From an uncultured Staphylococcaceae bacterium (GTDB lineage Bacteria; Bacillota_I; Bacilli_A; ML615J-28; CAG-313): 64,000 bases of DNA. This document shows, one piece after another, positions 543-55,115 of the stretch. The stretch is from positions 17,620 through 81,619 of the forward strand of contig CAYPEY010000002.1 of assembly GCA_964409955.1 (NCBI GenBank). The letters are read 5' to 3'. Positions within the stretch are counted from its first letter, which is position 1, and the number at the start of each line of letters is the position of its first letter. The translations under genes were made by a program, and so were the position numbers. The notes beneath the pieces were generated by a model that did no database searches, was not told the DNA's origin, and saw only the letters and a list, made by a program, of their open reading frames with translations.

Positions 543-556
543 AAGTTTCCACCTCT

Positions 557-1459: not shown

Positions 1460-1470
1460 CCTTATAATTT

Positions 1471-3623: not shown

Positions 3624-3640
3624 TCTTTCACTCTTTTCTT

Positions 3641-4210: not shown

Positions 4211-4216
4211 AAAAAC

Positions 4217-6423: not shown

Positions 6424-7142
6424 TTCTTTTTCCTTGTTAATTTTTGTCGTATATCCTTACCAAATATACGATGTATAATTCTTGTTATTTTATTTCTTAA
6501 AATTTTTCTTTTACTCATCCATGATTTTGCATACCAATGAATAGTATAAGTATTTTCTGTTTTATTAAGTTTTCCTGTTGCATCATCAAATGGGCAAAAA
6601 TAATCTACTGGATAAAGAACCATTCCACCACAATTTTGAAGTTGTCCGTTTGGAACAAATCCATATTCTTTTAAGATGTTTGTAAATATATTACAAACAT
6701 TTATTTTTATACGTTCACCATTTTCATCTAAGAATGCAGCATTATCATACCATTCTCTAGTTTTTTTCATAATTTCATTATTAGGATCTTTAACATACAA
6801 AATTAATCCTGGTGCAACATATTCATCTACTTCAAACCCTGAAAATGCTTCATTTTCAAGAAGATCATCAAGCGGCTTTATTACTTCTACATCTGTATCT
6901 AAATAAATACCACCGTATTGTTCCAATACTAAAAATCTTACATAATCAGATACAAAAGCATATTTCTTTGCTTCATATGCTTGCTTTACATATATATTAT
7001 GATTTATATCAAAATTATCTTCATTCCATTCTTTAATTTCGAAATCAGGAAGATATTTTTTCCAACTTTCAATACATTTTAAAATTATCTTTGGTTTTTC
7101 ATTATGTCCAAACCAACAATAATGAATTATTTTATTGCTCAT
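6420..7142 (-). CDS. Glycosyltransferase with DXD sugar-binding motif (GT32 / capsular polysaccharide synthesis family)
   Basis: IIHYCWFGHNEKPKIILKCIESWKKYLPDFEIKEWNEDNF...GGIYLDTDVEV is typical of Gly_transf_sug/GT32 proteins. RBS AATAGGTGA. Confidence 0.65.
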   Translation of the reverse strand: MSNKIIHYCWFGHNEKPKIILKCIESWKKYLPDFEIKEWNEDNFDINHNIYVKQAYEAKKYAFVSDYVRFLVLEQYGGIYLDTDVEVIKPLDDLLENEAFSGFEVDEYVAPGLILYVKDPNNEIMKKTREWYDNAAFLDENGERIKINVCNIFTNILKEYGFVPNGQLQNCGGMVLYPVDYFCPFDDATGKLNKTENTYTIHWYAKSWMSKRKILRNKITRIIHRIFGKDIRQKLTRKKK

Positions 7143-7150
7143 AAATTCAC

Positions 7151-8305
7151 CTATTTAAATAAATCACTTAATGGAATATGTTGATAGAAATCATACATCC
7201 AGTCACCATTTAGATATTTGCTAAAATATGTATAATAAAAATATATAAAACAAACTAACGAAATAATATAAATTATACTTTTTTCATTTTGATCAATTAT
7301 TCCACATTTTAAAATTATAGCAAAAGATAAACAATTTATTATATCAAAATAATTTCCCATTCTGCCTAACAATATAGCTCCTCCAAAACTAGAAATTACC
7401 ATAAATGCTGCAGAAATAAAACTCAAATTTATACATGTAAAAAAGAATTTATTATCAGTCTTTCTTATATTTTCTTTGTATAAAAAAGACAACGCAGGTA
7501 TTACTAAATATACAGCTACTCTAAATAAACTCATACCCGTACTGTTTGTGAACGAAGATTCATCATATCCACTATCTCCAAGTTCTTCTGCTATACCTAA
7601 TATTCCTTCTGTAAATTCAGTAAAAAATATTCCTATGATAATTGTAACCAAAAGTAACATCCATGTACGTCTATCCCAAATATTTTTTGTAAAGAACGGT
7701 GTTGCAAAAAATATTAATACGTATGGATGAATTAACATAGCAATTAATATCAATATAGATGGTTTTAATATTTTCTTTTTATTTACAAATAATGGTATAC
7801 TCCATATTGCTATTGCAGTAGCAAGAGTTTGTTTAATTGCTGCCATAGTAAATGCATATACTGTAAATGCTATTAATATGAATAACGTAAAACCAAAATC
7901 TACTGAATATTTTTTAATAAATAAAAGGTATGATGTTGTAACTATTATTGCCGTGAAAAATATGAACACATGTGGATTAGTAGATATTAGTGATTTAATT
8001 AATACTCTGTAAATATAAAACAATGGATTTGAACCTATTGTCCAATCTGTTTCTTTAATTCCTGATAAAGTACTAGGTATTTTAGTTTTAAAAGATACTA
8101 TATAATTACCAGTATCATTACCTACTGTCCTAAGTCCAGCAAACAAAATCATAATAATCAATATTATAATAAACATAAGATTAGCCACATTATTATTCTT
8201 TTTATATTCTATTATATTATCTTTAAATATACTGTTATTTGTTTGCTTATTATATGCAATACCTAATAGCGAACAAATAGCAAGCAACAACATAACGTAT
8301 ATCAT
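7151..8305 (-). CDS. EpsG-family / Wzy-type polysaccharide polymerase (polytopic membrane protein)
   Basis: 384 aa with about 10–11 hydrophobic segments and a large loop. The size and position inside a glycosyltransferase cluster are typical of EpsG/Wzy polymerases. Confidence 0.55.
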   Translation of the reverse strand: MIYVMLLLAICSLLGIAYNKQTNNSIFKDNIIEYKKNNNVANLMFIIILIIMILFAGLRTVGNDTGNYIVSFKTKIPSTLSGIKETDWTIGSNPLFYIYRVLIKSLISTNPHVFIFFTAIIVTTSYLLFIKKYSVDFGFTLFILIAFTVYAFTMAAIKQTLATAIAIWSIPLFVNKKKILKPSILILIAMLIHPYVLIFFATPFFTKNIWDRRTWMLLLVTIIIGIFFTEFTEGILGIAEELGDSGYDESSFTNSTGMSLFRVAVYLVIPALSFLYKENIRKTDNKFFFTCINLSFISAAFMVISSFGGAILLGRMGNYFDIINCLSFAIILKCGIIDQNEKSIIYIISLVCFIYFYYTYFSKYLNGDWMYDFYQHIPLSDLFK

Positions 8306-8320
8306 ATTATTACCCCTTCA

Positions 8321-9199
8321 TTAATATTTCTTTTTTGTATTTTTAATATATAAATAATACATTAAACCAAAGGGTAAAAGTATAATTGCATAGAATTTTT
8401 TAGAACATTTTTTTATATAATGTTTTTCTTTTGCAAATTTACTTTCCGCAATATAATGTATCATATTTTTAATAATAAATTTCTTTGATTTAGAAATTCT
8501 CATCATTTCATTTCTAAAATGTGCAAACCCTTTTGCACAAGATTTATATTGTGCAAATTTTGCATATGTCATTGAATCCTCATTATAATCAACTACACAA
8601 GTTGCTTCATTTAATATAAGTAATTGATAATTTTGATCTAATAATTTAAATTTGTAACTTGCAGGATAAAACTTTTCTCCTTCAAATTCTGGATAAGGAT
8701 AAAGTTTAGATAAAGATGATTTGAGAATCAATTTCTTGTCTCCTTTAACTTTATACTTTCCAAAAATATCAAGAGTAGTTGAATGTGAAATCTTAGGAAG
8801 CGGACTTCCTATTATTTCGTTTTTAGGTGTTATGTTATTGGAAATAATACCATAGTATTTATCACTTTTATTTTCTTTCCAAAAACTAGTAATTTTTTCT
8901 ACAGCTTCATCTGTCATCCAATCATCTGAATCTATAATTACATTAATTTCTGTATGAACATTTTCATATGCAAGATTTCTTGCTGTATGCATACCACCAT
9001 TAGGTTTATAAATATATTCTATTTCAATTTTATTTTCTTTTATCCAACTATCAACTAAATCTTTAGTATTATCACTTGATCCATCATCAATAATTAACCA
9101 CAAAAAATCATTTGATGTTTGTCTTAATAATGATTCATATACTTGATGTAAGCAATATGCTCTATTATATGTAGTTGTAATAACTGTTAAAGTTTTCAT
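8321..9199 (-). CDS. Glycosyltransferase family 2
   Basis: LTVITTTYNRAYCLHQVYESLLRQTSNDFLWLIIDDGSSDNT and a later DSDD motif. Confidence 0.8.
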   Translation of the reverse strand: MKTLTVITTTYNRAYCLHQVYESLLRQTSNDFLWLIIDDGSSDNTKDLVDSWIKENKIEIEYIYKPNGGMHTARNLAYENVHTEINVIIDSDDWMTDEAVEKITSFWKENKSDKYYGIISNNITPKNEIIGSPLPKISHSTTLDIFGKYKVKGDKKLILKSSLSKLYPYPEFEGEKFYPASYKFKLLDQNYQLLILNEATCVVDYNEDSMTYAKFAQYKSCAKGFAHFRNEMMRISKSKKFIIKNMIHYIAESKFAKEKHYIKKCSKKFYAIILLPFGLMYYLYIKNTKKKY

Positions 9200-10320
9200 T
9201 ACTTAATTCCTTTATATGTATTAACGTATTTTTCAGTAACCGATTTGATGCTATATCCATGTTTATCAAACGCTTTTTTTATTTTTTCTGCTGAAATTTT
9301 GGTTTTTTTTATGGCACCATTAACTGCATCATTCCATACTTGAAAAGATTCATCTAAATATAGTCTTTCTAGTAAGCCTAAACCTAAATCAGCTTCATTT
9401 GGAATCGCATAAGAACCAACTACTGGAACACCCGAAGCTTGGGCTTCTAAGACTGTACCAGGTAATCCTTCATAGATTGATGGAAAAATTAAAACATCAA
9501 AGACAGATATTAATCTAGGCACATCACCTCTTATTCCTAAGAAAGAAATATATTTACTTAAACCTAAATCAGAAACCTGCTTTTCTATATCCTTTCTTAA
9601 CATTCCATCACCAATAAATAATAGCCTTATATTATCATTCGATTTTCTATATTGATTAAACCATTCTACAATAAATTTGTGGTTCTTCATACTATCAAAT
9701 CTTCCAACATGGCCAATTATAATCTCTTCTTCCGCAATATTCAAATTATTCTTGATTTGATTTTTATCTGCAAAATTTGAAATATACCTTTTTAAATCTA
9801 TAGCATTTGGTATAACTTGAAATTCTTTTTTATTGAATAAAAATTTTCCAGCTTCTCTAGATACAGCAAATCTATGCGTTGAATTTTTATTTATTAAGTA
9901 TTTACCAAATTTTAAAAATAATTTTTTTAACATATTTTTTTGTTTAGAACCAGTTGTTCTAGCATGAGTTATTCTCACAGGTATTTTAACTTTTTTAGCT
10001 GCTAACATAACAAGCCCTGAATGATAAGAAGTATGAGCATGTACTGCATCATAACAACCTTCTTTCATTATTTTTTTTAACTCTTTAATATGTTTTAATA
10101 TTCCAGCATCACGTGGTGATGCTATTTTTATTATTTTTCCATTTAGTTCTTTTATTTCTTTTTCATAATATTGATTTTCATCTTTTGACAAAGTTAAAAA
10201 ATCAAATTCAACTTCTTTTTTATCAATATTACGATATATATCCATCATTCTAGATTCGGCACCACCCATATTAAGTGAACCAAATACTTGTAGTACTTTT
10301 ATTTTTTTTGCTTCATCCAT
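9199..10320 (-). CDS. Glycosyltransferase family 4
   Basis: KVLQVFGSLNMGGAESRMMD N-terminus and C-terminal YEGLPGTVLEAQASGVPVVGS motif. Confidence 0.75.
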   Translation of the reverse strand: MDEAKKIKVLQVFGSLNMGGAESRMMDIYRNIDKKEVEFDFLTLSKDENQYYEKEIKELNGKIIKIASPRDAGILKHIKELKKIMKEGCYDAVHAHTSYHSGLVMLAAKKVKIPVRITHARTTGSKQKNMLKKLFLKFGKYLINKNSTHRFAVSREAGKFLFNKKEFQVIPNAIDLKRYISNFADKNQIKNNLNIAEEEIIIGHVGRFDSMKNHKFIVEWFNQYRKSNDNIRLLFIGDGMLRKDIEKQVSDLGLSKYISFLGIRGDVPRLISVFDVLIFPSIYEGLPGTVLEAQASGVPVVGSYAIPNEADLGLGLLERLYLDESFQVWNDAVNGAIKKTKISAEKIKKAFDKHGYSIKSVTEKYVNTYKGIK

Positions 10321-10367
10321 TACTATATCCTTTTATGTTTCAATAAAAAAATATTTTATTGAAACTT

Positions 10368-11342
10368 TTATAAGTTTTCTTTATACCAAGCTATTGCTTC
10401 GTTTAATCCTTTTTCAAAATCATAATCAGGATCATATCCTAATAATTTTTGTGCTTTAGATATATCTGCATTAGAATGTTTTATATCTCCAAGTCTATCT
10501 GGTCCAAATATTGGTTCAATATCTTTTCCTAATGCTTTTGTTAAAGCATAATAAATATCTATTAGATATTCTCTATCTCCATAAGCAATATTAAAAGCTT
10601 CTCCTGCTGCACTACTTGGTGCAAGACATGCTTTTAAATTTGCTTCAATTACATTTTCTATATATGTAAAATCTCTACTTTGTTTACCATCACCATGAAT
10701 AACAGGTTGTTCGTTATCAAGAAGTTGTTTAATAAACTTAGGAATAACTGCGGCATATGCACCATTTGGATCTTGTCTGCGACCAAATACATTAAAGTAT
10801 CTCATTCCATATGTATCAAGTCCATATAGTTTTGTATATAATTTTGCATATTCTTCATCACATCTTTTTGTTAATGCGTAAGGTGATAAAAGATTTCCCT
10901 CTAATCCTTCTTTTTTAGGAAGTGTTGGTTCATCTCCATATACACTAGATGATGATGCGTAAACAAATTTTTTAACTTTGTTGATGCGTGCTGCTTCAAG
11001 CATATTAAGGGTTCCTTCAATATTGTTTTTACAATAGAAAATTGGTTCTTCAATTGATCTAGGGACACTTCCCCAAGCAGCTTGATTTAAAACATAATCA
11101 ACACCTTCACAAGCTTTAATACATGTATCTAAATCTTTAATATCACCTTTAATAAATTCATAATTTGGATTATCTTTAAACATCTCAACATATTCAATTT
11201 TACCTGTTGATAAATCGTCTAAACATCTTACTTTATATCCCATATTAAGAATTGCTTCACAAAGGTTTGACCCTATAAATCCAGCTCCACCAGTTACTAA
11301 GAAAAGAGTACCTTCTTCGAATTTTAAATGCTTATATCCCAT
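10368..11342 (-). CDS. NAD-dependent nucleotide-sugar 4-epimerase (WbpP/TviC-like, UDP-GlcNAcA/UDP-GlcA or UDP-GlcNAc 4-epimerase)
   Basis: LVTGGAGFIGSNL Rossmann motif and YxxxK region (YALTKRCDEEYAKLY). It lies immediately downstream of a TviB/WbpO-like dehydrogenase, as in Vi and B-band O-antigen loci. Confidence 0.7.
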   Translation of the reverse strand: MGYKHLKFEEGTLFLVTGGAGFIGSNLCEAILNMGYKVRCLDDLSTGKIEYVEMFKDNPNYEFIKGDIKDLDTCIKACEGVDYVLNQAAWGSVPRSIEEPIFYCKNNIEGTLNMLEAARINKVKKFVYASSSSVYGDEPTLPKKEGLEGNLLSPYALTKRCDEEYAKLYTKLYGLDTYGMRYFNVFGRRQDPNGAYAAVIPKFIKQLLDNEQPVIHGDGKQSRDFTYIENVIEANLKACLAPSSAAGEAFNIAYGDREYLIDIYYALTKALGKDIEPIFGPDRLGDIKHSNADISKAQKLLGYDPDYDFEKGLNEAIAWYKENL

Positions 11343-11345
11343 AAA

Positions 11346-12662
11346 TTATAATCTCCAATAGCTGTATCCAGCTTTTTCATATTCATCTCTATTAAGAAGT
11401 CCTTTAACATCTACTAATACTTTTTGTCCTTCACCAAATAAATTATCAATTTGGTTCATTGTAAATTGTTTGAATTCATCATGAGCAACTGCAAGAACTA
11501 CTGCATCCATATTTCTAACATCATTAATATCAACAAATTCAATACCATACAAATGAAGAGCTTCTTCTTTATCTGCAGTAGGGTCTGCAACAACTGGTTC
11601 AATACCATATTCTCTTAATTCCTTGATAATATCAAAAACTTTAGAATTTCTTGTATCTGGGCAGTTTTCTTTAAATGTAAATCCTAAAATTGCAACACGA
11701 GCACCTTTTACAGATTTTGATGCTTTGATAAGATTTTTAACTACGTTTTCAGCAACGTATTTTCCCATATCATCATTTATTCTTCTACCTGCTAAAATTA
11801 CTTGTGAATGATATCCTAACATTTCTGCTTTATATGTTAAATAATATGGGTCAACACCAATACAATGTCCTCCAACAAGACCAGGATAGAATTTTAAGAA
11901 ATTCCATTTAGTACCTGCAGCTTCTAATACTGATTTTGTATCAATGCCAATTTTATTAAATATTATTGATAATTCATTCATGAATGCTATATTAATATCA
12001 CGTTGTGAATTTTCAATAACTTTTGCTGCTTCAGCAACTTTAATAGAGTTAGCTCTATGAACTCCTGCTTCAACTACAAGTTCATAAACTTTAGCTACTA
12101 CATCTAAAGTTTCTTCGTCCATTCCTGAAACTATTTTTACAATTGTTTCAAGACGATGAACCTTATCACCTGGGTTAATTCTTTCAGGAGAATATCCTAC
12201 TTTAAAATCAGTTCCACAAACAAGTCCTGATTCTTTTTCAAGAATAGGTACACAAATATCTTCTGTTACACCTGGATACACTGTTGATTCAAAGACAACA
12301 ACACTTCCCTTTACTAAATTTCTACCTAAAATTCTACAAGCACCTTCGACTGGTGATAAATCTGGCATATGATCATCATGAACAGGTGTTGGTACTGCTA
12401 CTATATGAAATTTAGCATCACGTAATTTCGTTTCATCCGCAGTAAATTCTACAGTTGTTGCTTTTATAGCATCATCACCAACTTCATTAGTTGGGTCTAT
12501 TCCTGATTTATAAAGTTCTATTTTTTTGGCATTTAAGTCATATCCAACAACTTTTACCTTTTTTGCAAAAGCAACCGCTATTGGCATTCCAACATAACCA
12601 AGTCCTACTAGTGATATTTTTTCTTCACCATTTAATATTTTTTCATAAAGATTTTTGTACAT
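11346..12662 (-). CDS. Nucleotide-sugar 6-dehydrogenase (TviB/WbpO/CapL-like UDP-N-acetylhexosamine dehydrogenase)
   Basis: ISLVGLGYVGMPIAVAFAKK...GYDLNAKKIELYKSGIDPTNEV plus a catalytic Cys region (GGHCIGVDPYYL), characteristic of the UDP-glucose/GDP-mannose dehydrogenase family. Confidence 0.8.
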   Translation of the reverse strand: MYKNLYEKILNGEEKISLVGLGYVGMPIAVAFAKKVKVVGYDLNAKKIELYKSGIDPTNEVGDDAIKATTVEFTADETKLRDAKFHIVAVPTPVHDDHMPDLSPVEGACRILGRNLVKGSVVVFESTVYPGVTEDICVPILEKESGLVCGTDFKVGYSPERINPGDKVHRLETIVKIVSGMDEETLDVVAKVYELVVEAGVHRANSIKVAEAAKVIENSQRDINIAFMNELSIIFNKIGIDTKSVLEAAGTKWNFLKFYPGLVGGHCIGVDPYYLTYKAEMLGYHSQVILAGRRINDDMGKYVAENVVKNLIKASKSVKGARVAILGFTFKENCPDTRNSKVFDIIKELREYGIEPVVADPTADKEEALHLYGIEFVDINDVRNMDAVVLAVAHDEFKQFTMNQIDNLFGEGQKVLVDVKGLLNRDEYEKAGYSYWRL

Positions 12663-12674
12663 ATATTTACTCTC

Positions 12675-13778
12675 CTATAATTCCATAGTATTAATTACTG
12701 TTAAATTTACTTTTTTTACATCAAATTTATCTTCTACCATCTTACGGCCAAGACGTGCCATTTCAGGTATAATTTCTTTATGTTCGATAAAATAAATCAT
12801 TTTATCAGCTAAAGCATTTATATCTTTAGCTTCCACTAAATACCCATTTACTCCATCTACAACAGTTTCCCTGCATCCAGGAACATCTGTTGTAAGAATA
12901 GCTTTATATGAAGCCATTGCTTCAAGTACTGATTTTGGAGTCCCTTCTCGGTAAGATGGTAACACAAAAACACTACATTCTTTAAGATATGGTCTTACAT
13001 CTTTTTGCTCTCCAAAATATTCGACTACATTATTATCTATATAAACTTGTAATTCTTCAGGTTTTAAACTAGATGGATTAGTATCAAATGGGCCAACAAG
13101 TAAAAACCTGGTATTTGGGTATTGTTCTTTTACAAGACGAGCTGCCTCTAAATATTCTACAACACCTTTATCTTTAATTAAACGACTAACCGATAAGAAT
13201 GTTACATCACTTGGTAATTCTTGGGGAACAAAATTTTCAAGATTAACCCCTGATCCATGCATTATAACAACTTTATCTTGTTTAATAATACCTAGTTTTA
13301 TAAACAAATCAACGTCATCTTGGTTTTGAAAAAATACTTTTTTAGCTTTTTTAAGAGCTATCTTATATTCAGTTTTTAGAATAAACCTAACTAATGAGGC
13401 TTTTAATCCTTTAGATAAAAAAACAGAACCAACCCCAGCAATCAGTGGATATGTATCAATTTTATATTTTCTTGATGCAAGTCCACCATAAATAACAGGC
13501 TTTGCCTGATATGTAAAGATTTTATCTGGTTTTTCTTCTTTTAATATTTTCTTTAAATGTTTTAATGTTTTTAAATCTTTTAAAGGATTCATTCCATTTT
13601 TTTCAACATTAAATTTTCTATATTTAATTCCTACTTCTTTAAATGAATCTAACCATTTATTCTCATCTTCATTTCCTATTGCAATCACTTCATGTCCTCG
13701 CAATAAAAAATCCTTCATCATATCCATTCTAAACCAAAATAATGAAGGTGTGTGACTAGATATTACTAAAACTTTCAT
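12675..13778 (-). CDS. Glycosyltransferase family 4 (WbuB-like); first gene of the transferase operon
   Basis: GT4 C-terminal motif YREGTPKSVLEAMASYKAILTTDVPG. About 200 bp of non-coding sequence with a terminator lies upstream. Confidence 0.7.
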   Translation of the reverse strand: MKVLVISSHTPSLFWFRMDMMKDFLLRGHEVIAIGNEDENKWLDSFKEVGIKYRKFNVEKNGMNPLKDLKTLKHLKKILKEEKPDKIFTYQAKPVIYGGLASRKYKIDTYPLIAGVGSVFLSKGLKASLVRFILKTEYKIALKKAKKVFFQNQDDVDLFIKLGIIKQDKVVIMHGSGVNLENFVPQELPSDVTFLSVSRLIKDKGVVEYLEAARLVKEQYPNTRFLLVGPFDTNPSSLKPEELQVYIDNNVVEYFGEQKDVRPYLKECSVFVLPSYREGTPKSVLEAMASYKAILTTDVPGCRETVVDGVNGYLVEAKDINALADKMIYFIEHKEIIPEMARLGRKMVEDKFDVKKVNLTVINTMEL

Positions 13779-16757: not shown

Positions 16758-17021
16758 ATGATAATCATACCAATGCGTGATTTAAAAGATACGGTCAACA
16801 TAGAAAAACGATGTAAAGAAGCTAATGGACCTGTTTTTGTTACTAAAAATGGATATGGTAAATTAGTAGTCATGGATATATCTTATTACGAAAAATTAAT
16901 AAGTAAAATAAAAGAAGCTAAATTAATTAACCAAGGTTTATCAGATATAAACAATAATGAAGTTTTAGATGTAGAAACTGTAATGAAAAATATAGCTGAT
17001 AAATATGGATTTAAAAAATAA
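16758..17021 (+). CDS. Type II antitoxin, Phd/YefM family
   Basis: MIIIPMRDLKDTVNIEKRCKEANGPVFVTKNGYGKLVVMDISYYEKL matches the Phd/YefM fold pattern. Strong RBS AGGAGGTG. Overlaps the downstream toxin ORF by 17 nt. Confidence 0.65.
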   Translation: MIIIPMRDLKDTVNIEKRCKEANGPVFVTKNGYGKLVVMDISYYEKLISKIKEAKLINQGLSDINNNEVLDVETVMKNIADKYGFKK

Positions 17022-17325
17022 ATATGCTTTTACTAAAACTGCATATAAAGATTTAATAGATATTTTAAATTATATTTCTATAACTCTATCTAATTATAGA
17101 GCTGCTGAAAAATTATACAAAAATATCTTGCAAAAACTTGATCAATTAGTATATTTTTCAAATATGGGAGAAACAGTAAACAATACTTTTTTTAACAATA
17201 AAAATGTTAAAATAATAATGATAAACAAATTTAAATTGTACTATATTTTTTCTGAAGAAGAAAAAGAAATTATAATCTTAAGAATTTTATATTCTAAACA
17301 AATTCTTAAATTTTTAGAACTATAA
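17005..17325 (+). CDS. Type II toxin, RelE/ParE superfamily
   Basis: 106 aa. The N-terminal YAFTKTAYKDL and C-terminal KLYYIFSEEEKEIIILRILYSKQ resemble the RelE/ParE pattern (…yrliY.vd…v.vlrigHR…). Translationally coupled to the Phd-like gene. Confidence 0.5.
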   Translation: MDLKNKYAFTKTAYKDLIDILNYISITLSNYRAAEKLYKNILQKLDQLVYFSNMGETVNNTFFNNKNVKIIMINKFKLYYIFSEEEKEIIILRILYSKQILKFLEL

Positions 17326-17538: not shown

Positions 17539-18696
17539 CTACTGCTTTAATATGTCAATCAACTTTTCTAATCTAACGCTATCCTTCACAAACATTTTTT
17601 TATTTTCATATTCAATTACATAATACTTAGAATATGTATTTGTTTTATTACCAAAATTTAAAGTAAAATCGTCACTACAAATATATTGAAATAATATTTT
17701 ATTAATATTATTTATTTTATTTTTAAGTTCACTAGAAGAGCTACAATATATTGTAGATATTTTTTTTCTTTCTAATTCGTAGTTTACTCCCCATTTTGAT
17801 ACATCATATTTTATCAGTGATAAATTTATTTCATTAGATTTTAATTGTAAAATTCTTTGTTTAAAATAATTATTAGACCATATAGATATAAAATCAATAT
17901 TATCTAAAAAAGAAAATAAGTCTTTTTTAGCAATGTTTAAATCAATAGATTCTATTTTATCTATTAACATTTTTTGTACATCTAATATAGTTAAATTAAC
18001 ATTATCTTTTAAATGTCCTGTTTGAATCATTCTTTGTGACAAATGATGAACATTTAAAATACAATTATTCTTTATATAAAAATCTAGATCATACAAATCT
18101 CTTCCCTTTACTCTATTTTTCCATCCCCTACATAATACTGCATGCACTTTTCCAGCAAATAATGATGCTTCATCATATATTTTAATTTTATGAATTAAAG
18201 GAAATTCTTTTGTTTTATACTCATATGTTGCTCCAGCTGGCGGATTTACATCTATTTCAAACTTGATTTTAATTACTTCATTTTTTTGAATATGATTAGC
18301 TACATCATTTAACGGGTTTATTAATAACAAATGTTCTAACGTATTTCCTTTTAAAAATGCAGATTGGATATTTGATTCTTGTGTTTTTTCTTTCAATACT
18401 GGTTCAAAGTTTAACCCAAATTTTCTGAATGTATTAGAAATACTTGAAAAATATTTTTCTAAATTAAAATTTGAATTATGATTACATAAAGAAAAATCAA
18501 GACCCTCACTAAATCTATTTAACCCATAAAATATTCTCAGAGCTGTACCACCATAAAATGCAGCATGATCAAAAAAATCAGTTAAACTTAATGCATATAA
18601 AGTTATTTCTTGTACAATTTCTTTAAATGCATTGATATATTGTTCTTTTGTAGAACAATTATATTTAGTTAACATTTGTTCTATTAATGTTTTCAT
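17539..18696 (-). CDS. abiEii: AbiEii/AbiGii-family nucleotidyltransferase toxin (type IV TA / abortive infection)
   Basis: FYGGTALRIFYGLNRFSEGLDFSL is the DUF1814/AbiEii signature. ATGA overlap with the upstream antitoxin. Confidence 0.8.
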   Translation of the reverse strand: MKTLIEQMLTKYNCSTKEQYINAFKEIVQEITLYALSLTDFFDHAAFYGGTALRIFYGLNRFSEGLDFSLCNHNSNFNLEKYFSSISNTFRKFGLNFEPVLKEKTQESNIQSAFLKGNTLEHLLLINPLNDVANHIQKNEVIKIKFEIDVNPPAGATYEYKTKEFPLIHKIKIYDEASLFAGKVHAVLCRGWKNRVKGRDLYDLDFYIKNNCILNVHHLSQRMIQTGHLKDNVNLTILDVQKMLIDKIESIDLNIAKKDLFSFLDNIDFISIWSNNYFKQRILQLKSNEINLSLIKYDVSKWGVNYELERKKISTIYCSSSSELKNKINNINKILFQYICSDDFTLNFGNKTNTYSKYYVIEYENKKMFVKDSVRLEKLIDILKQ

Positions 18697-19280
18697 AAGT
18701 TATCCCCCAATAACATTTTCTTTAAAATTTTTAAATTTTTTCTTTTATAATAATCACAAATAGATATAATAGCTTCTTTATTTAACTTTGAAAAGTCTTC
18801 TTCATCAATTCTTAAATCATCAAACAATAATTCCTTTAATTGTTTTACTGAAGTTACTTGTGGTTTTTTGTATAATAAATCACACAAAGCTTTTTCAGGA
18901 GTTGCTATCATATAAGTATAATTATTCTCTTCTTTTATTATAATACCCATATTCCAAACATCTACTGGAATATCAGTGTAATAATAATTACCAAATATAT
19001 TACTTATATACTTATTATGCCTTTTTAAAGTTGTTGCAGAAGTATATACTTTGACTTGTTCTAAAATCAATCCATACTTTGATAATGCATATTCGAATGA
19101 AAGATATGATGGAGATTCTATTACATTAGCTAATAAATATCCTTCTACATTAATATTATCTTCGTATATACCTCTATTAACCTTATAAAACTTTCCACTA
19201 TCAATTTCTCTTTTAATTTTATCTTTTGGATTACTATAATTTTTATATTTTTCTAATAATTCTTTTGTAGTTAATATCAT
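18693..19280 (-). CDS. abiEi: AbiEi-family antitoxin / transcriptional regulator
   Basis: About 195 aa with N-terminal ILTTKELLEKY...GKFYKVNRGIY typical of AbiEi_4. The ATG at 19280 has a GGTGA RBS; the track's GTG start at 19289 is probably an over-extension. Confidence 0.75.
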   Translation of the reverse strand: MILTTKELLEKYKNYSNPKDKIKREIDSGKFYKVNRGIYEDNINVEGYLLANVIESPSYLSFEYALSKYGLILEQVKVYTSATTLKRHNKYISNIFGNYYYTDIPVDVWNMGIIIKEENNYTYMIATPEKALCDLLYKKPQVTSVKQLKELLFDDLRIDEEDFSKLNKEAIISICDYYKRKNLKILKKMLLGDNL

Positions 19281-19496
19281 TTTGCTCACCCAAGTCCAAT
19301 TTTATCATACTTCGTTGAGCAAATCAACATATATACATTTAATTATTCTAATTTAATAACATCTCAAAAAATATAGTTTTTATTTTAACACCTTACCTTT
19401 ACGCTTACATTTACCTAATAAGTAAGCGTGAAAGTAAAGTAATTAAATATTATACTCTTATTCTATAATCAAAGAGTTTCTTGTACATTCCTTTAT

Positions 19497-19931
19497 TTAT
19501 AATTTTTCAGAACCATTATCTTTTTTAATAACTTCTTGAATTAAATTTAAATAATTATCTGTAGCAGATATTGTTGGAACTTTATTTCGGACAAAACCTT
19601 GCATTATATATTTTCGCAAAATCTCTATTGCAAACCTTCTAAAAATTATCCCACGCTTACTTTTAACGCGATATCCAACAGCTAATACAACATCAAAATT
19701 ATAATATTTTACATCATTTACAATTTTGATATACTCTACATTTTTTTCTAATTCATTAACTTTATAGCTATTTCTTACATGTCGTAGTATAGTAGCTCTT
19801 TCTTTACGAAATAAAGTTGACATACCATCTAGTGTTAACCACACCGTTTCATCATTAGGCATAATTAAAACTTCAATTTCTTTTTCTCCATCTTTAAATT
19901 TTACAATTTCATAGTTTTTTTCTTCAATCAT
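19497..19931 (-). CDS. RhuM-family protein, N-terminal fragment only (144 aa; full-length RhuM is about 330 aa), likely a gene remnant
   Basis: FKDGEKEIEVLIMPNDETVWLTLDGMSTLFRKERATILRHVRN...VLAVGYRVKSKRGIIFRRFAIEILRKYIMQGF matches the RhuM N-terminal half. The region downstream is non-coding. Confidence 0.55.
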   Translation of the reverse strand: MIEEKNYEIVKFKDGEKEIEVLIMPNDETVWLTLDGMSTLFRKERATILRHVRNSYKVNELEKNVEYIKIVNDVKYYNFDVVLAVGYRVKSKRGIIFRRFAIEILRKYIMQGFVRNKVPTISATDNYLNLIQEVIKKDNGSEKL

Positions 19932-20163
19932 TTTCTTTTCCTTCCTTTTTTAAAAAATAAAAAAGCGGCCAATTAACTAAAACAAAAGTATCCTATTAAA
20001 AAATAGGATTAACTCTCATTTTATTTAATTAGCCGCGTACGTCTCTTGCGCGAATGAACTTACCGTTTATTCTTTGGACTAGTAAATCATCAATATAAAT
20101 ATTATCCCAAAAGACTAGATAATAGATTTTAAAACTTGACTTTTTACAACTTAAATTATATCA
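19929..20163. repeat. Inverted repeat, left copy (about 235 bp; pairs with 24305–24540); contains an internal 8-bp-stem hairpin ATCCTATTaaaaAATAGGAT
   Basis: The reverse complement of 24305–24540 matches this segment base for base, with one 1-nt indel near the outer end and two mismatches near the inner end. The outer end is the ATG of the RhuM-fragment gene. Confidence 0.9.
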
Positions 20164-20213
20164 ATTTTTTATAATAAATACAAGCATTTTATATATATTT
20201 TTAAATATAAAAA

Positions 20214-20236
20214 ACCTCTTTTTAAGAGGTTTAATT
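20214..20236 (-). terminator. Rho-independent terminator of the GNAT-fold gene/operon
   Basis: aacctctt-ttt-aagaggtt perfect 8-bp stem followed on the minus strand by a T-run. Confidence 0.55.
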
Positions 20237-21352
20237 TATTGTTTTTACATAAGCTCTTCTACGTTTGTGAAGAACAGAATCAAATAGCTTCCATTGATTT
20301 TGGATATTATCATTTGTTTCTAAATTAAGATTTGTTTCAGCATATTCAATATCACCATTTGATAACATCTTCATTACTTCATTTAATATAGCTGATGCAA
20401 TTCCTTTTCTTTCATATTCAGGAAGTACTCCGATTAATCCAAGGTCTAATACCTTAGGTTTTTTTATTGCTTTTAGAACTCTTGCTATTGCGCATGGTGT
20501 TAAATGACCACGAGATTTTTGAACGGCTTTTGCAAGAGATGGGAAACAAATTCCAAAGCATACAACATTATTCGCCTCATCTACTATTACCGCAACTCTT
20601 TTTAAGTCTATGATTAATTTAAAATTATCTATCATCATTTTACGAGTTGCTTTTGTAAATGGTACAGAACCATATATATCTACATATGTTTCATCAATAA
20701 TATCGAAGAATTTATCGGCATATTTTTTAATAAAATCTTTTGTGTTTTTAGCTTCGCCAAATTTTAAATTATATTTTTTCATCATCATTGAACTAATTTT
20801 ATCAAGACGTGGATCGATAGTTTTTGGCAAATATAATTTTCTTTCAGTCCAATCTACTTCTTTTTGAAAACCATAATTTTCAATTAAAGTTTGATAATAT
20901 TCATAATTATATTGTTCCTCGAAAGTTGATAGTTGATCAAACCCATCAACTAAGAGTCCTTCACGCTCAAGATCTGAAAAGCCAAGTGGTCCAACGATTG
21001 TATCCATTCCTTTGGACTTAGACCATGCTTCAACGGTTTCAAATAATTTGTTTGCAACTTCTTGATTATTAATTGCATCAAATCTAGTAAATCTAACTCG
21101 TTTTTGATTTTCTTTTTTATTAGATACATGTTGAATAATTCCAGAAATTCTACCTACTATTTTACCATCTATATATGCATTATAATACACAGCTTCTGCT
21201 TGATCTAAATAAAGATAATTCTTTTTGAAAATTTTCTTTTCATCCATATATAGTGGTGGAACAAAATAAGGATTATCCTTATATAAATTTAGAGGGAAAT
21301 TTAAAAATTCCTTTTGTTGCTTTTTAGTTTTAACTTCTTTAATTTCTACCAT
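20231..21352 (-). CDS. GNAT-fold acyl/aminoacyl-transferase-like protein (two-lobed, FemAB/Acetyltransf_6-like), uncharacterized
   Basis: The C-terminal LPEYERKGIASAILNEV resembles GNAT motif A. The N-terminal EIKEVKTKKQQKEFLNFPLNLYKDNPYFVPPL is a recurring N-terminus of about 380-aa 'GNAT family' proteins of Firmicutes. The track ORF starts at a TTG (21388) that overlaps the degV stop; the ATG at 21352 is more likely. Confidence 0.45.
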   Translation of the reverse strand: MVEIKEVKTKKQQKEFLNFPLNLYKDNPYFVPPLYMDEKKIFKKNYLYLDQAEAVYYNAYIDGKIVGRISGIIQHVSNKKENQKRVRFTRFDAINNQEVANKLFETVEAWSKSKGMDTIVGPLGFSDLEREGLLVDGFDQLSTFEEQYNYEYYQTLIENYGFQKEVDWTERKLYLPKTIDPRLDKISSMMMKKYNLKFGEAKNTKDFIKKYADKFFDIIDETYVDIYGSVPFTKATRKMMIDNFKLIIDLKRVAVIVDEANNVVCFGICFPSLAKAVQKSRGHLTPCAIARVLKAIKKPKVLDLGLIGVLPEYERKGIASAILNEVMKMLSNGDIEYAETNLNLETNDNIQNQWKLFDSVLHKRRRAYVKTIN

Positions 21353-21362
21353 ATTAAAAAGC

Positions 21363-22232
21363 CTATTTATGTTTTGCGTAGAATGCAACTCCTACTGTAT
21401 CAGGTCCACAATGACTTCCTGCAGTTGGATTAACAACAACATATTCAATATTTAAATTATTGCCATATTTTGCTTTTAACATTTCACCTAGTTTTTCAGC
21501 TAAATGAAGTGAATCAGTATGTCCAATAATTATTCGATGTTTATCTATATCAACACTTAAATTTTCAACATATTCAAGAAGTTTATTTAAAGCAGTAACT
21601 CTACCTCTTGATTTTGCAATGTTAGTCATTGTACCATTATCGTCCATATAGATAATTGGTTTAATCCCAATTACTCCACCCATGATTGCTGCAATATTAG
21701 TGACACGACCACTTCTTCTAAAGAACTTTAAGTTATCAGCAAAAAAGTAAGTTGCAAAGTGTTTTACTTCTTTATCAGCCCACGCCATTATATCTTCAAT
21801 TGAACTACCATTTTTATACATATCACCAATTTCTTTTACAATTATATTACTTAAAATTGTTATCCCCATTGTGTCAATTGTATAAAATTTTCGATCAGGA
21901 TATTTTTCATGTAATTCTTCAACCGCAATATTCATTGCGTTGAAAGTTCCACTCATTGCGCGAGAAAAATGAACATAAAGTATATCATTACCTTTTGCAA
22001 ATTCAGGTTCAAAGTATTCCATATAAGTAACAGGACTTATTGCGCAAGTAGAAGGAAGCGCCCCTTCTCTTAGAGTATCATAAAATGTTTTATAATCAAA
22101 AACTTCAAAATCTTCATATGGCTTAATTTCTTTACCATCTATCACATATGGCATACTAATCAATTTATATCCGTATTCTTTTGCCTCTTGCAAAGTAATA
22201 TCAGTATCAGTATCTGTAAATAATGTTAACAT
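21363..22232 (-). CDS. DegV-family fatty-acid-binding protein
   Basis: FTDTDTDITLQEAKEYGYKLISMPYVIDGKE...ILYVHFSRAMSGTFNAMNIA is typical DegV. Strong RBS GGAGGA. Confidence 0.8.
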   Translation of the reverse strand: MLTLFTDTDTDITLQEAKEYGYKLISMPYVIDGKEIKPYEDFEVFDYKTFYDTLREGALPSTCAISPVTYMEYFEPEFAKGNDILYVHFSRAMSGTFNAMNIAVEELHEKYPDRKFYTIDTMGITILSNIIVKEIGDMYKNGSSIEDIMAWADKEVKHFATYFFADNLKFFRRSGRVTNIAAIMGGVIGIKPIIYMDDNGTMTNIAKSRGRVTALNKLLEYVENLSVDIDKHRIIIGHTDSLHLAEKLGEMLKAKYGNNLNIEYVVVNPTAGSHCGPDTVGVAFYAKHK

Positions 22233-22353
22233 AATTAATCCTCCAAATATTTTATTTTATAATAAGATATCCTTCCTAGATTAATTATACTAAATTAACT
22301 TCAATCAAAAATCAACTAAATTTCAACTTTTGTTGACAAAATTCGACATCTAG

Positions 22354-23403
22354 CTATTTTAATTTAACTGTAAATTTGCATCCTTTATCTTGTAAATTTT
22401 CAACATTGATACTACCTTCATGAATATCAATTATCTTTTTAACTAAAGAAAGGCCAAGCCCATTTCCCTCACTTTTATGAGATGTATCTATTTGATAAAA
22501 CTTATTAAAGATAAAATCTATTGATTCTCCCTTAATACCTGGCCCTTCATCTTCTATTGTAAATATAATTTCATCACCAATATTCTTTAAGGTAATTTTA
22601 ATAATAGCACTCTTTGGTCCGAATTTAATCGCATTGTCGATTAAATTATTCCACACATGCATCATTAAACTTTCACTACCTGTAAATTTTACTTCATCTA
22701 AATCAACATCAAATTCAACATTCTTTTCCATCCATTTAGGTTCTAAAAACAAAATAGATTGTCTAATTTGTTCATCTAATGAATATTCATTTTTCTTAAA
22801 ATTAATTGCTTGATTATCAATTTTAGAAAGTAGTAATATATTTTGAATAAGCTCATTCATCCTTCTTGCGTTGAAATGGATTTTTTCAATATATTCCTTT
22901 CTTTCAATTTCAGTAATATTATCATCTGAAAGTAGTGTTGCATAACCATCTATTGCATTAAGTGGAGTTTTAAATTCATGAGATACGTTAGATATAAAAT
23001 CTGATTGAATAGTTTCAGTAGCAGAAAGTTCTTTCATCATTAAATTAAAATAGTGTTTCATATCTTCGATTTCATCGAAGATACTCTTTTCATTAGCACG
23101 AATGTTTAAATTACCATTAGCAACTTCATTCATTAAATCTTTTAATTCTTTAATTGGATTAATTAAGCTTTTACCGATAAAAAAGGCTAAAATTAATCCT
23201 ACTATTAAACTCACTGTAAAAGTGATTAAATAATTAGGTATTTCTATATCTTCTGATAATAATAGATTTAATACTTCATTAAATGCTGATCCAATACTAA
23301 TTGCGCTAGCAATTACAATCATACTAAATAGTACAAAATAAAATTTAAAACTTTGTCTTTTTTTAGTTTTCCAACTACGATAATTAAACTTTATCTTTTT
23401 CAC
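22354..23403 (-). CDS. Sensor histidine kinase, intramembrane-sensing type (two N-terminal TM helices with a loop of about 20 aa, no extracellular sensor domain)
   Basis: H-box SHEFKTPLNAI; G-boxes GNGLGLSLVKKII. The GTG start overlaps the RR stop codon (GTGA). Confidence 0.8.
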   Translation of the reverse strand: MKKIKFNYRSWKTKKRQSFKFYFVLFSMIVIASAISIGSAFNEVLNLLLSEDIEIPNYLITFTVSLIVGLILAFFIGKSLINPIKELKDLMNEVANGNLNIRANEKSIFDEIEDMKHYFNLMMKELSATETIQSDFISNVSHEFKTPLNAIDGYATLLSDDNITEIERKEYIEKIHFNARRMNELIQNILLLSKIDNQAINFKKNEYSLDEQIRQSILFLEPKWMEKNVEFDVDLDEVKFTGSESLMMHVWNNLIDNAIKFGPKSAIIKITLKNIGDEIIFTIEDEGPGIKGESIDFIFNKFYQIDTSHKSEGNGLGLSLVKKIIDIHEGSINVENLQDKGCKFTVKLK

Positions 23404-24071
23404 TTTTTTACCACCTTATATCCAAGACCTCTCATAGTTACAATTTCAAAGTCGGGATTATCTTTAAATTTTTTTCTAAGACGCTCTATATGTACATCTA
23501 CCGTATGCATATCACTATCAGAATCAAATCCCCAAATATCCATCATTAATTGTTGTCTTGTAAATATTTTACCAGGATATGTTACCATCTTATAAAGGAC
23601 TTGAAATTCCTTTAGAGGAAGCTCTACTTTTTCTCCATTCGATATAACTATAAAAGAATCATATTCAAGTACTGTATTACCAATTATTTGGCGTCTTTCA
23701 CTAGTCATTTTGGCGCGTCTTAAAAGAGCTTCTGCTCTTATTACCATTTCATTAACATTAACAGGTTTTGTCATATAATCATCACTACCCGATAAAAAAC
23801 CTAGTCTCATATCTGAGAAAGATGTTTTTGCGGTGATCATCATTACTGGAATTGTTGATCCTGATTCTCTTAATGAACTAACAAGCTCATACCCATCCAT
23901 CTCCGGCATCATTATATCACTAATAATTAAATCATAATAATTTTTATCAAGTTCATCTAGTGCTTCTTTTCCGTTTGAAACAGTTTTTACTAAATAACCT
24001 TTCTTAATAAATACACTTTGAAATAGTTGTCTTAATTCTCTATCGTCTTCTGCAATTAATATCTTATTCAT
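23400..24071 (-). CDS. OmpR-family response regulator
   Basis: KILIAEDDRELRQLF...DLIISDIMMPEMDGYEL receiver domain plus a C-terminal winged-helix (RGLGYKVVKK). RBS GGGAG. Confidence 0.85.
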   Translation of the reverse strand: MNKILIAEDDRELRQLFQSVFIKKGYLVKTVSNGKEALDELDKNYYDLIISDIMMPEMDGYELVSSLRESGSTIPVMMITAKTSFSDMRLGFLSGSDDYMTKPVNVNEMVIRAEALLRRAKMTSERRQIIGNTVLEYDSFIVISNGEKVELPLKEFQVLYKMVTYPGKIFTRQQLMMDIWGFDSDSDMHTVDVHIERLRKKFKDNPDFEIVTMRGLGYKVVKK

Positions 24072-24101
24072 AATAAACTCCCATTTACACTAATTATATT
24101 T

Positions 24102-24130
24102 ATTATAACATATATATATCTTTTTTGCAA
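24102..24130 (-). promoter_or_regulatory. Sigma-A-type promoter of the RR-HK-degV-GNAT operon
   Basis: On the minus strand: TTGCAA, 17 nt spacer, TATAAT, about 30 nt upstream of the RR start codon. Confidence 0.5.
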
Positions 24131-24190
24131 AAATTAACATATCTAAAATATAACAAAAAAATTATTTTTTTGTTATAATATATATACCAA

Positions 24191-24265
24191 GTCCCTGTAG
24201 TTAAATGGACATAACGAGGTCCTCCTAAGACCTTATTGCAGGTTCGATTCCCGCCGGGGACGCCA
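24191..24265 (+). tRNA. tRNA-Arg (anticodon CCT)
   Basis: Hand-folded cloverleaf: acceptor GTCCCTG/CGGGGAC (one G·U pair), D-arm GTTA..TAAC, anticodon stem AGGTC/GACCT with loop CTCCTAA (U33, CCT, A37), T-arm GCAGG-TTCGATT-CCCGC (one A·C mismatch), discriminator G and encoded CCA. Confidence 0.75.
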
Positions 24266-24304
24266 TATATTTTTTTAACATTATTTTTGATTTCAAAAAG
24301 AAAA

Positions 24305-24540
24305 TATGATATAATTTAAAATGTAAAAAGTCAAGTTTTAAAATCTATTATCTAGTCTTTTGGGATAATATTTATATTGATGATTTACTAGTCCAAAGAA
24401 TAAACGGTAAGTTCATTCGCGCAAGAGACGTACGCGGCTAATTAAATAAAATGAGAGTTAATCCTATTTTTTAATAGGATACTTTTGTTTTAGTTAATTG
24501 GCCGCTTTTTTATTTTTTAAAAAAGGAAGGAAAAGAAATG
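24305..24540. repeat. Inverted repeat, right copy (pairs with 19929–20163); the outer end is the ATG of the AlbA_2-family gene
   Basis: See left copy; the identical sequence includes AAAAGCGGCCAATTAACTAAAACAAAAGTATCCTATTAAAAAATAGGATTAACTCTCATTTTATTTAATTAGCCGCGTACGTCTCTTGCGCGAATGAAC... Confidence 0.9.
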
Positions 24541-25937: not shown

Positions 25938-26085
25938 TAATGTTTAAATGATAAAGATATAAGATAAATTATTTTTCATAAAAAAACTATAAATATGTGT
26001 ATTATTACTACATATAATATTAGTATATTAAAAACTTTACAAAAGAATTAACATATGATATCATATGTATATAAGAGGTGATACT

Positions 26086-26541
26086 ATGCCATTTAATCAA
26101 AATGAATATATATCAAATTTCAATAAGAATAATTATAAAATGTATCAATTTAGGGTTAAGAAATCAGACACTAATATTATTAATCATTTAGATAATATAG
26201 AAAATAGAAATGGTTATATTGTTTCTTTAATTAATACTGATATAAATAATTCTATTTATACAATAAAAGAAATTAAGAATATTATTAAACCAATTCTTAA
26301 TAAACACGGAATAACAGAAATTTATCTTTTTGGATCATACGCTAGAGGAGAGGCAAAAGAGTCAAGTGATATTGATATTTATTGTAATAAAGGAAATATT
26401 AAAACATTTATAGATCAAGGGTTACTTGAAGATGAATTAGAAACATCTTTAAATAAAAAGGTTGATATTATATTTGATTCATCTTATATTGATGAATATT
26501 TTAAAAAACAAATAATGGAGGATATGATTAAATTATGTTAG
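26086..26541 (+). CDS. mntA: MntA-type nucleotidyltransferase antitoxin (Pol-beta superfamily)
   Basis: EIYLFGSYARGEAKESSDIDIY (GS-x9-DxD NTase motif). The true start is the second ATG of the track ORF, preceded by the AAGAGGTGA RBS. Overlaps the downstream HepT-like gene by 7 nt. Confidence 0.7.
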   Translation: MPFNQNEYISNFNKNNYKMYQFRVKKSDTNIINHLDNIENRNGYIVSLINTDINNSIYTIKEIKNIIKPILNKHGITEIYLFGSYARGEAKESSDIDIYCNKGNIKTFIDQGLLEDELETSLNKKVDIIFDSSYIDEYFKKQIMEDMIKLC

Positions 26542-26870
26542 GGGTTAAAGATAGAGGGATATTGTTACAAATTATTAAAAGATGTAATCGTATTATTGAA
26601 AAAATATCCGATATAAATGAAACAGAATTTGCTTTAAATGATGACATTGAAGAAGTTATTTGTTTTAATTTATTTCAAATTGGAGAATTAGCTAATGGTT
26701 TATCAGTTGAATTTGTAAAAGAATATAATAAGATTCCTTGGAAACAGATAATTGGTATGAGAAACAGAATTGTTTATGGATATGATACTATTAATTTAGA
26801 AATAGTTTGGAATACAGCAAACGAAAGTATTCTTGAATTAAAAGATTATTGTAAGAACATTTTAAAATAA
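26535..26870 (+). CDS. hepT: HepT-like / DUF86 toxin (putative RNase of the HepT-MntA module)
   Basis: 111 aa. The GMRNRIVYGYD region corresponds to the DUF86 Rx4HxY motif, with Tyr where His is expected. Coupled to the MntA gene. Confidence 0.6.
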   Translation: MLGVKDRGILLQIIKRCNRIIEKISDINETEFALNDDIEEVICFNLFQIGELANGLSVEFVKEYNKIPWKQIIGMRNRIVYGYDTINLEIVWNTANESILELKDYCKNILK

Positions 26871-48399: not shown

Positions 48400-48455
48400 T
48401 TTCTTCTCCTTTTTTCTGAAAGCTTGCAAAAATAAAAGCGCTTTCCTTCATTATA

Positions 48456-54298: not shown

Positions 54299-54403
54299 AA
54301 TCTTATCCTCCAATAAAAGTATGCGTAAAATTAAAATTTTTTATGCAATTTTTAAAAATTTCTGATTTTTAAAAATATTTTTAATTAAATAAAATGTCTA
54401 AAC

Positions 54404-55114: not shown

Positions 55115-55115
55115 A

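Follow-up and report, generated by a model that had tools for sequence, protein, structure and literature searches.

We analyzed a 64,000-nucleotide (nt) stretch of DNA from an uncultured Staphylococcaceae bacterium (GenBank assembly GCA_964409955.1, contig CAYPEY010000002.1, positions 17,620 to 81,619; this whole stretch is called the window below). Two nearly identical copies of a non-coding sequence, here termed the arms, stand there in inverted orientation on either side of a 4.1-kb block of genes, and each arm leads into a gene that reads away from the block, a RhuM-like gene on the left and a gene for an AlbA_2 protein on the right. The arms probably represent a two-member family of propagated promoter/5' untranslated region (5' UTR) modules, recently duplicated or homogenized by gene conversion. 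In this reading the 238-bp unit would be an expression module composed of an extended -10 element, a leader of about 197 nt with a terminator in its last 85 nt, a Shine-Dalgarno (SD) sequence and the start codon. Two unrelated defense-island genes would have received copies of it very recently, unless gene conversion maintains the identity of the copies. The original prediction, made from the letters of the same stretch, described the architecture of an invertible DNA segment and mentioned a duplicated mobile promoter/UTR element as an alternative. We favor that alternative, which fits putative mobile promoters as defined in the literature.

The repeated unit and its predicted parts

The two arms, 19932-20169 and 24301-24538, were found to be reverse complements over 238 nt, being 98% complementary and 4,131 nt apart (repeat scan, with MAFFT in agreement). 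A base-by-base comparison gave an unbroken perfect match of 217 nt between 19932-20148 and 24538-24322. Inward of this run there are two mismatched positions (20149-50/24321-20), 13 identical bases, two more mismatched positions (20164-65/24306-05) and 4 identical bases; past 20169 and 24300 the similarity is gone. The inner-end variants are AC (20149-50) and AT (20164-65) in the left arm and TT (24320-21) and TA (24305-06) in the right arm. The GC content of the arm is 25.6%. At their outer ends the arms adjoin the ATG of the RhuM-like gene (19929-31, minus strand) and that of the AlbA_2 gene (24538-40, plus strand), and if the alignment is to include both ATGs, a 1-nt indel has to be placed in the A-run that separates the SD sequence from the start codon (GAAAATG vs. 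GAAATG). The near-identity reported in the original prediction was therefore real, and its 1-nt indel was recovered, but the mismatches number four and not two. The placement of the outer ends at the two start codons was confirmed, and the identical 5' region of about 230 bp said to be common to both genes corresponds to 217 nt of perfect match, or 238 nt with the four mismatches.

A 31-mer of the arm occurred exactly twice in the window and not at all in 100 shuffled sequences. Neither blastn nor nhmmer found a third copy in the window, not even a diverged one, and a repeat scan of all 64 kb returned the arms as the sole long non-coding repeat. Logan unitigs from the runs SRR14307658 and SRR14307642 were 100% identical to the window. 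They span 20119-24350 (L002), 21226-24350 (L003), and 18550-19961 (L001), and their ends fall where an inverted repeat with two copies forces a k = 31 graph to branch. As independent unitigs reproduce the repeat, it is not an artefact of one assembler.

Read towards the outward genes, each arm opens with a promoter element. The predicted right promoter consists of the -35 hexamer TTGATT (24287-92), a 17-nt spacer, a TG dinucleotide (24307-08) and the -10 hexamer TATAAT (24310-15). Its counterpart on the left has the -35 hexamer TTGTAT (20183-78), which matches the consensus at three of six positions, a spacer of the same length, TG (20163-62) and TATAAT (20160-55). The left -35 hexamer is under the threshold of the consensus scan, and the left promoter depends on the extended -10 element. 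This element is TGATATAAT in both arms and falls within the 13 bases, TGATATAATTTAA, that are conserved at the inner end. Neither -35 hexamer is part of the repeat, and their sequences differ between the two copies. The claim that each repeat supplies an identical promoter thus holds for the -10 region, which is inside the arms, but not for the -35 region. A further promoter proposed at the inner end and pointing inward, TTGACT-N17-TATCAT, did not stand out: it is one of 38 promoter-like matches in 5.6 kb, where shuffled sequences gave 39.0 ± 6.2, and an equally good outward promoter with an extended -10 element is found on the opposite strand.

On the right, transcription is predicted to start near 24321-24323, where the perfect run begins. 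The run extends from about 7 nt past the -10 hexamer, which is the expected start site, up to the start codon, and therefore matches the predicted 5' UTR. The leader is about 197 nt long and its last 85 nt constitute the predicted terminator. In the right arm a 32-bp hairpin (24434-24505) is followed by U6AU6 (24506-18), with a folding energy of -36.5 kcal/mol and a z-score of -8.8 relative to shuffles. The stability of the hairpin was found to differ between the strands, with -31.9 kcal/mol for the outward strand against -19.4 kcal/mol for the inward strand, a gap of 12.5 kcal/mol that stems from G.U pairs. Such a preference for the outward strand suggests that the hairpin functions as RNA, in transcripts of the outward genes. 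The leader as a whole folds better than shuffles (z = -5.2), but this signal comes entirely from the terminator hairpin, and the first 117 nt had no more structure than shuffles (z = -0.07). The SD sequence follows directly after the U-tract, which leaves no space for a second promoter.

Two features listed by the original prediction, a perfect 8-bp hairpin and a GC-rich quasi-palindrome, are real but are not separate entities. The former is the tip of the 32-bp hairpin and the latter the base of the terminator on its 5' side together with the bases just upstream. They are parts of the terminator or adjoin it, and are not recombinase sites. The leader contains no open reading frame (ORF) of at least 20 amino acids (aa). 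A leader peptide or other small ORF was considered and rejected, the candidates being a 7-codon frame with an ATG within the hairpin and a 14-codon frame with an inward ATG, both of which lack an SD sequence as judged by eye. No meaningful tandem array was found in the arms or the leader. In a search against Rfam 15 only the transfer RNA (tRNA) reached the gathering score, and nothing was found in the arms at E ≤ 10.

Based on these parts we propose that transcription would begin close to 24322 in the right arm and close to 20148 in the left arm, and that most module transcripts would end at the hairpin and U-tract. Read-through would be halted there as well, on the right from the tRNA-Arg gene and on the left from the operon encoding a response regulator (RR), a histidine kinase (HK), DegV and GNAT. 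No terminator belonging to the tRNA-Arg(CCT) gene was found before the right arm. The two potentially harmful genes would thereby be insulated, with low expression that depends on read-through, common control and an equal translation start. The inverted layout would merely follow from the sites at which the copies arrived. It would permit RecA to invert the 4.1-kb block now and then, with almost no regulatory effect.

Table 1. Features of the repeat and its surroundings (positions in the window; HTH, helix-turn-helix)
Feature	Position	Strand	Basis or remark
Left arm: -10, leader, terminator and SD module before the RhuM-like gene	19932-20169	-	Repeat scan, MAFFT, base-by-base comparison
Right arm: identical module type before the AlbA_2 gene	24301-24538	+	Repeat scan, MAFFT, base-by-base comparison
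Left outward promoter (predicted)	20155-20183	-	Read from the sequence by eye
Right outward promoter (predicted)	24287-24315	+	Consensus scan, 10/12 matches plus TG
Left hairpin (20036-19965) and U-tract (19964-19952), predicted terminator	19952-20036	-	Base comparison, folding; sequence identical to right
Right hairpin and U-tract, predicted intrinsic terminator/attenuator between promoter and SD	24434-24518	+	Folding
SD GGAAGGA (19945-39) and ATG (19931-29) of the RhuM-like gene	19929-19945	-	Sequence; spacer one A longer than on the right
SD GGAAGGA (24525-31) and ATG (24538-40) of the AlbA_2 gene	24525-24540	+	Sequence
RhuM-like gene, 144 aa, N-terminal domain only (PF13310)	19497-19931	-	Domain search; PADLOC phage-defense candidates PDC-S05, PDC-S23
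AlbA_2 (Schlafen-like)/HATPase_c_4/winged-HTH protein, 461 aa	24538-25923	+	Domain search
tRNA-Arg(CCT), 35 nt upstream of the right arm and directed towards it	24191-24265	+	tRNA and Rfam searches
Inner block RR-HK-DegV-GNAT	20231-24071	-	Domain search, relatives; conserved in relatives
Response regulator, OmpR-type	23400-24071	-	Inner block
Histidine kinase	22354-23403	-	Inner block
DegV	21363-22232	-	Inner block
GNAT	20231-21352	-	Inner block
GNAT terminator hairpin	20212-20232		End of inner block
Phd/ParE toxin-antitoxin	16758-17325	+	
AbiEi/AbiEii toxin-antitoxin	17539-19289	-	Strong PADLOC matches
MNT/HepT toxin-antitoxin	26065-26870	+	

Relatives and putative mobile promoters

The exact proteins of the window were found only in one 91,528-nt NCBI contig and in two Logan runs, and the organism is rare. 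The closest homologues of the AlbA_2 protein (69-70% identity) have short, ordinary 5' regions from which the unit is absent. In L004 to L009 a 131-nt spacer separates the gene from a divergent HTH gene, and in L015 a promoter, TGGTATAAT, is located about 45 nt upstream and the homology to the window restarts at ATG TTA CAT AAA. As these homologues are without the leader, it was grafted onto the AlbA_2 gene and is not ancestral to it. Homologues of the RhuM-like protein reached at most 49% identity, and the leader was not traceable through this gene.

The DegV-GNAT genes are a conserved core pair, present at 70-84% identity in many Clostridia-type metagenome-assembled genomes. The RR-HK-DegV-GNAT order is entire in relative L021, and HK-DegV-GNAT is found in L020. 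In these nearest relatives of the inner block (82-84% identity for GNAT) the unit is absent beyond the GNAT gene. L020, with 84% aa identity for GNAT, has the GNAT terminator and, 40 nt on, a convergent tRNA-Arg(CCT) gene (2985-3059). In L021 the apparent start of another tRNA gene was seen by eye beyond the GNAT gene, and ARAGORN reported none on that truncated contig. Between L020 and the window the coding identity is about 77% and the similarity ends at the gene ends. Because the intergenic DNA has diverged to this extent, 217 identical intergenic bases indicate a very recent event or ongoing gene conversion, in line with what the original prediction had concluded from the identity of the arms.

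The tRNA gene of L020 is 89% identical to 24166-24270 of the window, promoter region included, and is found at the opposite end of the block. In the window the tRNA-Arg(CCT) gene is located upstream of the RR gene and divergent from it; compared to L020 its strand is kept and its side is changed. A derivation of the window gene order from that of L020 by a single inversion was ruled out, since the tRNA gene switches sides yet keeps its strand.

Searches for the unit elsewhere were negative. An exact 23-mer had no match in species-representative genomes, and three patterns of the unit had none in viral contigs. A 20-mer gave five matches in JGI metagenomes, all by chance, on contigs of 63-70% GC. 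Distant blastn searches of plasmids and phages found nothing, nor did blastn and nhmmer in all the relative loci fetched.

Putative mobile promoters (PMPs) are defined as sequences of at least 50 nt with at least 80% identity that lie upstream of coding sequences without mutual homology and whose upstream neighbors are non-homologous as well (Matus-Garcia et al., 2012; PMC3488235). The arms share 238 nt with four mismatches, of which 217 nt are perfect, and end at ATGs. The coding sequences downstream are non-homologous, PF13310 in one case and AlbA_2/HATPase_c_4/HTH in the other. Upstream, the left arm has the GNAT terminator as its neighbor and the right arm the tRNA-Arg gene, and with similarity ending at 20169/24300 the repeat is not a segmental duplication. 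No transposase domain was found in the window ORFs tested (those of at least 110 aa) and the plasmid and phage collections gave no match, so that the unit is not indicated to be the terminal repeat of an insertion sequence (IS) or of a transposase gene. Two-member families were the commonest in the PMP survey and made up a majority, and in its worked example the conservation reaches about position -5 (PMC3488235). Like PMPs, the unit is thus near-identical DNA in front of unrelated genes within one genome, with unrelated DNA upstream, conserved almost to the start codon and without an IS element or a known riboswitch. Unlike them, it is 238 nt long compared to a mean of 66 nt (PMC3488235), it has a strong terminator between promoter and SD sequence, and its inverted copies, with only 4.1 kb between them, enclose a housekeeping block that is conserved. 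Miniature inverted-repeat transposable elements and composite transposons are marked by terminal inverted repeats within the unit, a target-site duplication and many copies. The unit was counted twice in the 64 kb, where no additional copy was found even in diverged form, and its outer ends are start codons.

Several points weigh against a propagated promoter/5'-UTR module. With two copies and no homologue there is no covariation or comparative support for an RNA function. The promoter and terminator are predicted features, and with the first 117 nt unstructured it is not apparent what the leader is for. It would be unusual for a strong terminator to separate a promoter from its gene if nothing relieves it. 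Random duplication leaves unexplained that both copies end at most 1 nt from a start codon. The copy number of two refers to the 64-kb window.

Alternative readings of the repeat

In ToxIN a promoter, a non-coding RNA, a terminator and a gene follow one another in a similar layout, and the arms could, though we consider it unlikely, each be a stand-alone small RNA gene, in which promoter, RNA of about 197 nt and terminator would form a trans or cis regulator that was duplicated together with its position beside cargo genes. Such a regulator would, for example, serve as an RNA antitoxin or act on the neighboring defense gene, in an architecture like that of type III toxin-antitoxin systems. The promoter-like element, the defined end at a strong terminator, the lack of an ORF in the leader and the defense and toxin-antitoxin character of the neighborhood are consistent with this, and type III systems share with the window both the intrinsic terminator ahead of the protein gene and the defense-island setting. 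A genuine ToxI-like repeat with a ToxN locus is present in relative L017. However, the leader has no tandem RNA repeats, the proteins downstream are not RNases of the ToxN/AbiQ type, the body of the RNA is unstructured, no Rfam family matched even at the relaxed E-value, and no homologues were found in the collections searched. The L017 locus itself (GCA_964384805.1, CAYLLO010000011.1, 6317-6951) is typical of type III toxin-antitoxin systems: a 34-nt tandem repeat in 3.1 copies with 95% matches immediately precedes a ToxN_toxin gene. The DegV-GNAT pair lies a few kb upstream of this locus.

It is improbable that the arms are crossover sites of a phase-variation switch, at which RecA or a trans-acting invertase would flip the block and so alter the outward defense genes or the inner block. 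The long inverted repeats around the 4.1-kb block, with arms ending at outward start codons, are as the original prediction described them, but its reading as a switch was unsupported. The 217 bp of perfect identity at a distance of 4,131 bp would be a plausible RecA substrate, and occasional RecA-mediated inversion is physically plausible. The -35 hexamers and the tRNA gene lie within the invertible part, so that a flip swaps them between the outward genes, and the unitig graph, built at k = 31 and broken at the arms, fits either direction of the inner block; the data covered were consensus contigs and these unitigs. No recombinase, integrase or transposase domain had a Pfam match in the tested ORFs of the 64 kb (at least 110 aa), in agreement with the earlier statement that no recombinase is encoded nearby; a trans-acting enzyme could be encoded elsewhere in the genome. 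Because the arms are identical and crossover would fall within the perfect run, each outward gene would keep the same -10 element, leader, terminator and SD sequence whichever way the block lies, and input from upstream would be stopped by the terminator. A flip would exchange only the -35 hexamer and the upstream neighbor, the tRNA gene or the end of the GNAT operon, both behind the terminator. The proposed redirection of inward promoters would not occur, as each end of the block would afterwards meet the same arm sequence, the supposed inward promoter included. In addition, a flip would set four co-oriented inner genes against the prevailing gene direction.

Invertons of the PhaseFinder type and shufflons have repeats of 10-40 nt that are recognized by an invertase, usually encoded nearby, and carry a promoter inside the flipped DNA (PMC11892184). 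The window resembles them in that inverted repeats flank a segment with promoter parts and in that the neighbors are defense- or surface-type genes. It differs in its 238-nt arms, about six times longer than inverton repeats, in the lack of a dedicated invertase among the ORFs tested and in that a flip leaves the promoter recipient unchanged, since the -10 element, leader, terminator and SD sequence stay with the outward genes in identical arms. Homologous recombination is known to cause inversions where long repeats stand in inverted orientation, as with rRNA operons, IS copies and island paralogues. These share with the window a few hundred bp of inverted homology, the absence of a dedicated recombinase and gene conversion that keeps the copies identical. 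Those repeats are genes or IS elements, however, whereas the repeat in the window is a non-coding promoter-leader unit, whose inversion is only hypothetical.

The position of the terminator immediately before the SD sequence would also suit an attenuator controlled by a ligand or a protein, as in a riboswitch, where an upstream fold competes with the terminator base and a signal frees both defense genes. Folding of leader prefixes gave a weak alternative three-way junction that uses the first 6-7 nt of the 5' arm of the terminator. This fold amounts to only about 3 kcal/mol against the 36 kcal/mol of the hairpin. The candidate aptamer region is the stretch with z = -0.07, and neither a known Rfam family nor conservation in any relative was found. 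The structured sensor of a riboswitch is missing from the first 117 nt, and we regard such control as doubtful.

Even less probable is a combination in which the leader of about 200 nt would be an undescribed, lineage-specific regulatory RNA, either an antitermination attenuator or a small RNA, that places two unrelated defense modules (RhuM-like with AbiE, and AlbA_2 with MNT/HepT) under one signal, and in which inversion of the conserved two-component-DegV-GNAT-tRNA block by homologous recombination between the arms would in addition swap which defense gene lies downstream of the tRNA-Arg promoter. An assembly artefact, by which a metagenome assembler produced the repeat or the joins between block and flanks, is highly improbable. 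The source contig at NCBI, of 91.5 kb, was encountered with metagenome runs only, and a 238-bp inverted repeat exceeds the usual k-mers, so that its orientation hangs on read pairs. But the Logan unitigs of two runs give all four arm junctions base for base, inner-end variants included, and a repeat in two copies makes the direction of the block ambiguous without casting doubt on the repeat itself.

Neighboring genes and meaning for the defense island

Domain and tRNA searches confirmed the gene identities given by the original prediction (RhuM-like, AlbA_2/HATPase_c_4/winged HTH, GNAT, DegV, HK, RR, and tRNA-Arg(CCT)). The minus strand carries nearly every gene of the window, among them the four protein genes between the arms. 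Beyond the left arm are the RhuM-like gene, AbiEi/AbiEii, and Phd/ParE, and beyond the right arm the AlbA_2 gene, the MNT/HepT pair and then the core genes thiN, rpe, rsgA, rlmN, and rsmB, so that three toxin-antitoxin modules are grouped around the repeat. The idea of an island attachment site was rejected, the window having no second copy of the 3' end of the tRNA gene.

The 144-aa RhuM-like ORF had been called a fragment. It may be a complete short protein, as forms of about 150 aa with the N-terminal domain only recur. In L016 (2049-3886) three RhuM-family genes of 154, 153, and 294 aa are found in tandem. The GNAT ORF as listed (20231-21388) has a TTG start and 385 aa, while its homologues and its own database entry have about 373 aa; the true start is probably the ATG at 21352, which abolishes the overlap with DegV. 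Between the RR gene and the tRNA gene, 24095-24186 contains a 46-nt AT-rich imperfect palindrome and several divergent promoter-like hexamers, and is probably the shared control region of the RR operon and the tRNA gene.

Elsewhere in the window we observed a polysaccharide biosynthesis cluster (1-13778), a gene for an 1,820-aa protein with coding repeats of about 225 nt, Listeria-Bacteroides repeat domains and an amidase domain (42967-48429), SpoIIGA and, after it, a pair of sigma-70-family factors that are probably sigE and sigG (53510-55805), ftsZ (60238-61383), and a gene for a Sel1-repeat protein made of 108-nt tandem units (62779-63930). A relative (L019) also has SpoIVA. Judged from gene content, the SpoIIGA and sigma factor genes, SpoIVA in that relative and a GC content of 26% indicate a spore-forming, Clostridia-type genome.

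The relevance of a propagated promoter/5'-UTR module would be local, to the evolution of defense islands, and the general surprise is limited. Long inverted repeats around a block of genes need not be a switch, as the symmetry of the arms here would make inversion nearly silent. If true, the arms would be a clean and very recent case of a ready-made unit of promoter, leader and ribosome-binding site that plugs newly acquired defense genes into the chromosome, and its built-in terminator would hold the expression of a potentially toxic cargo low.

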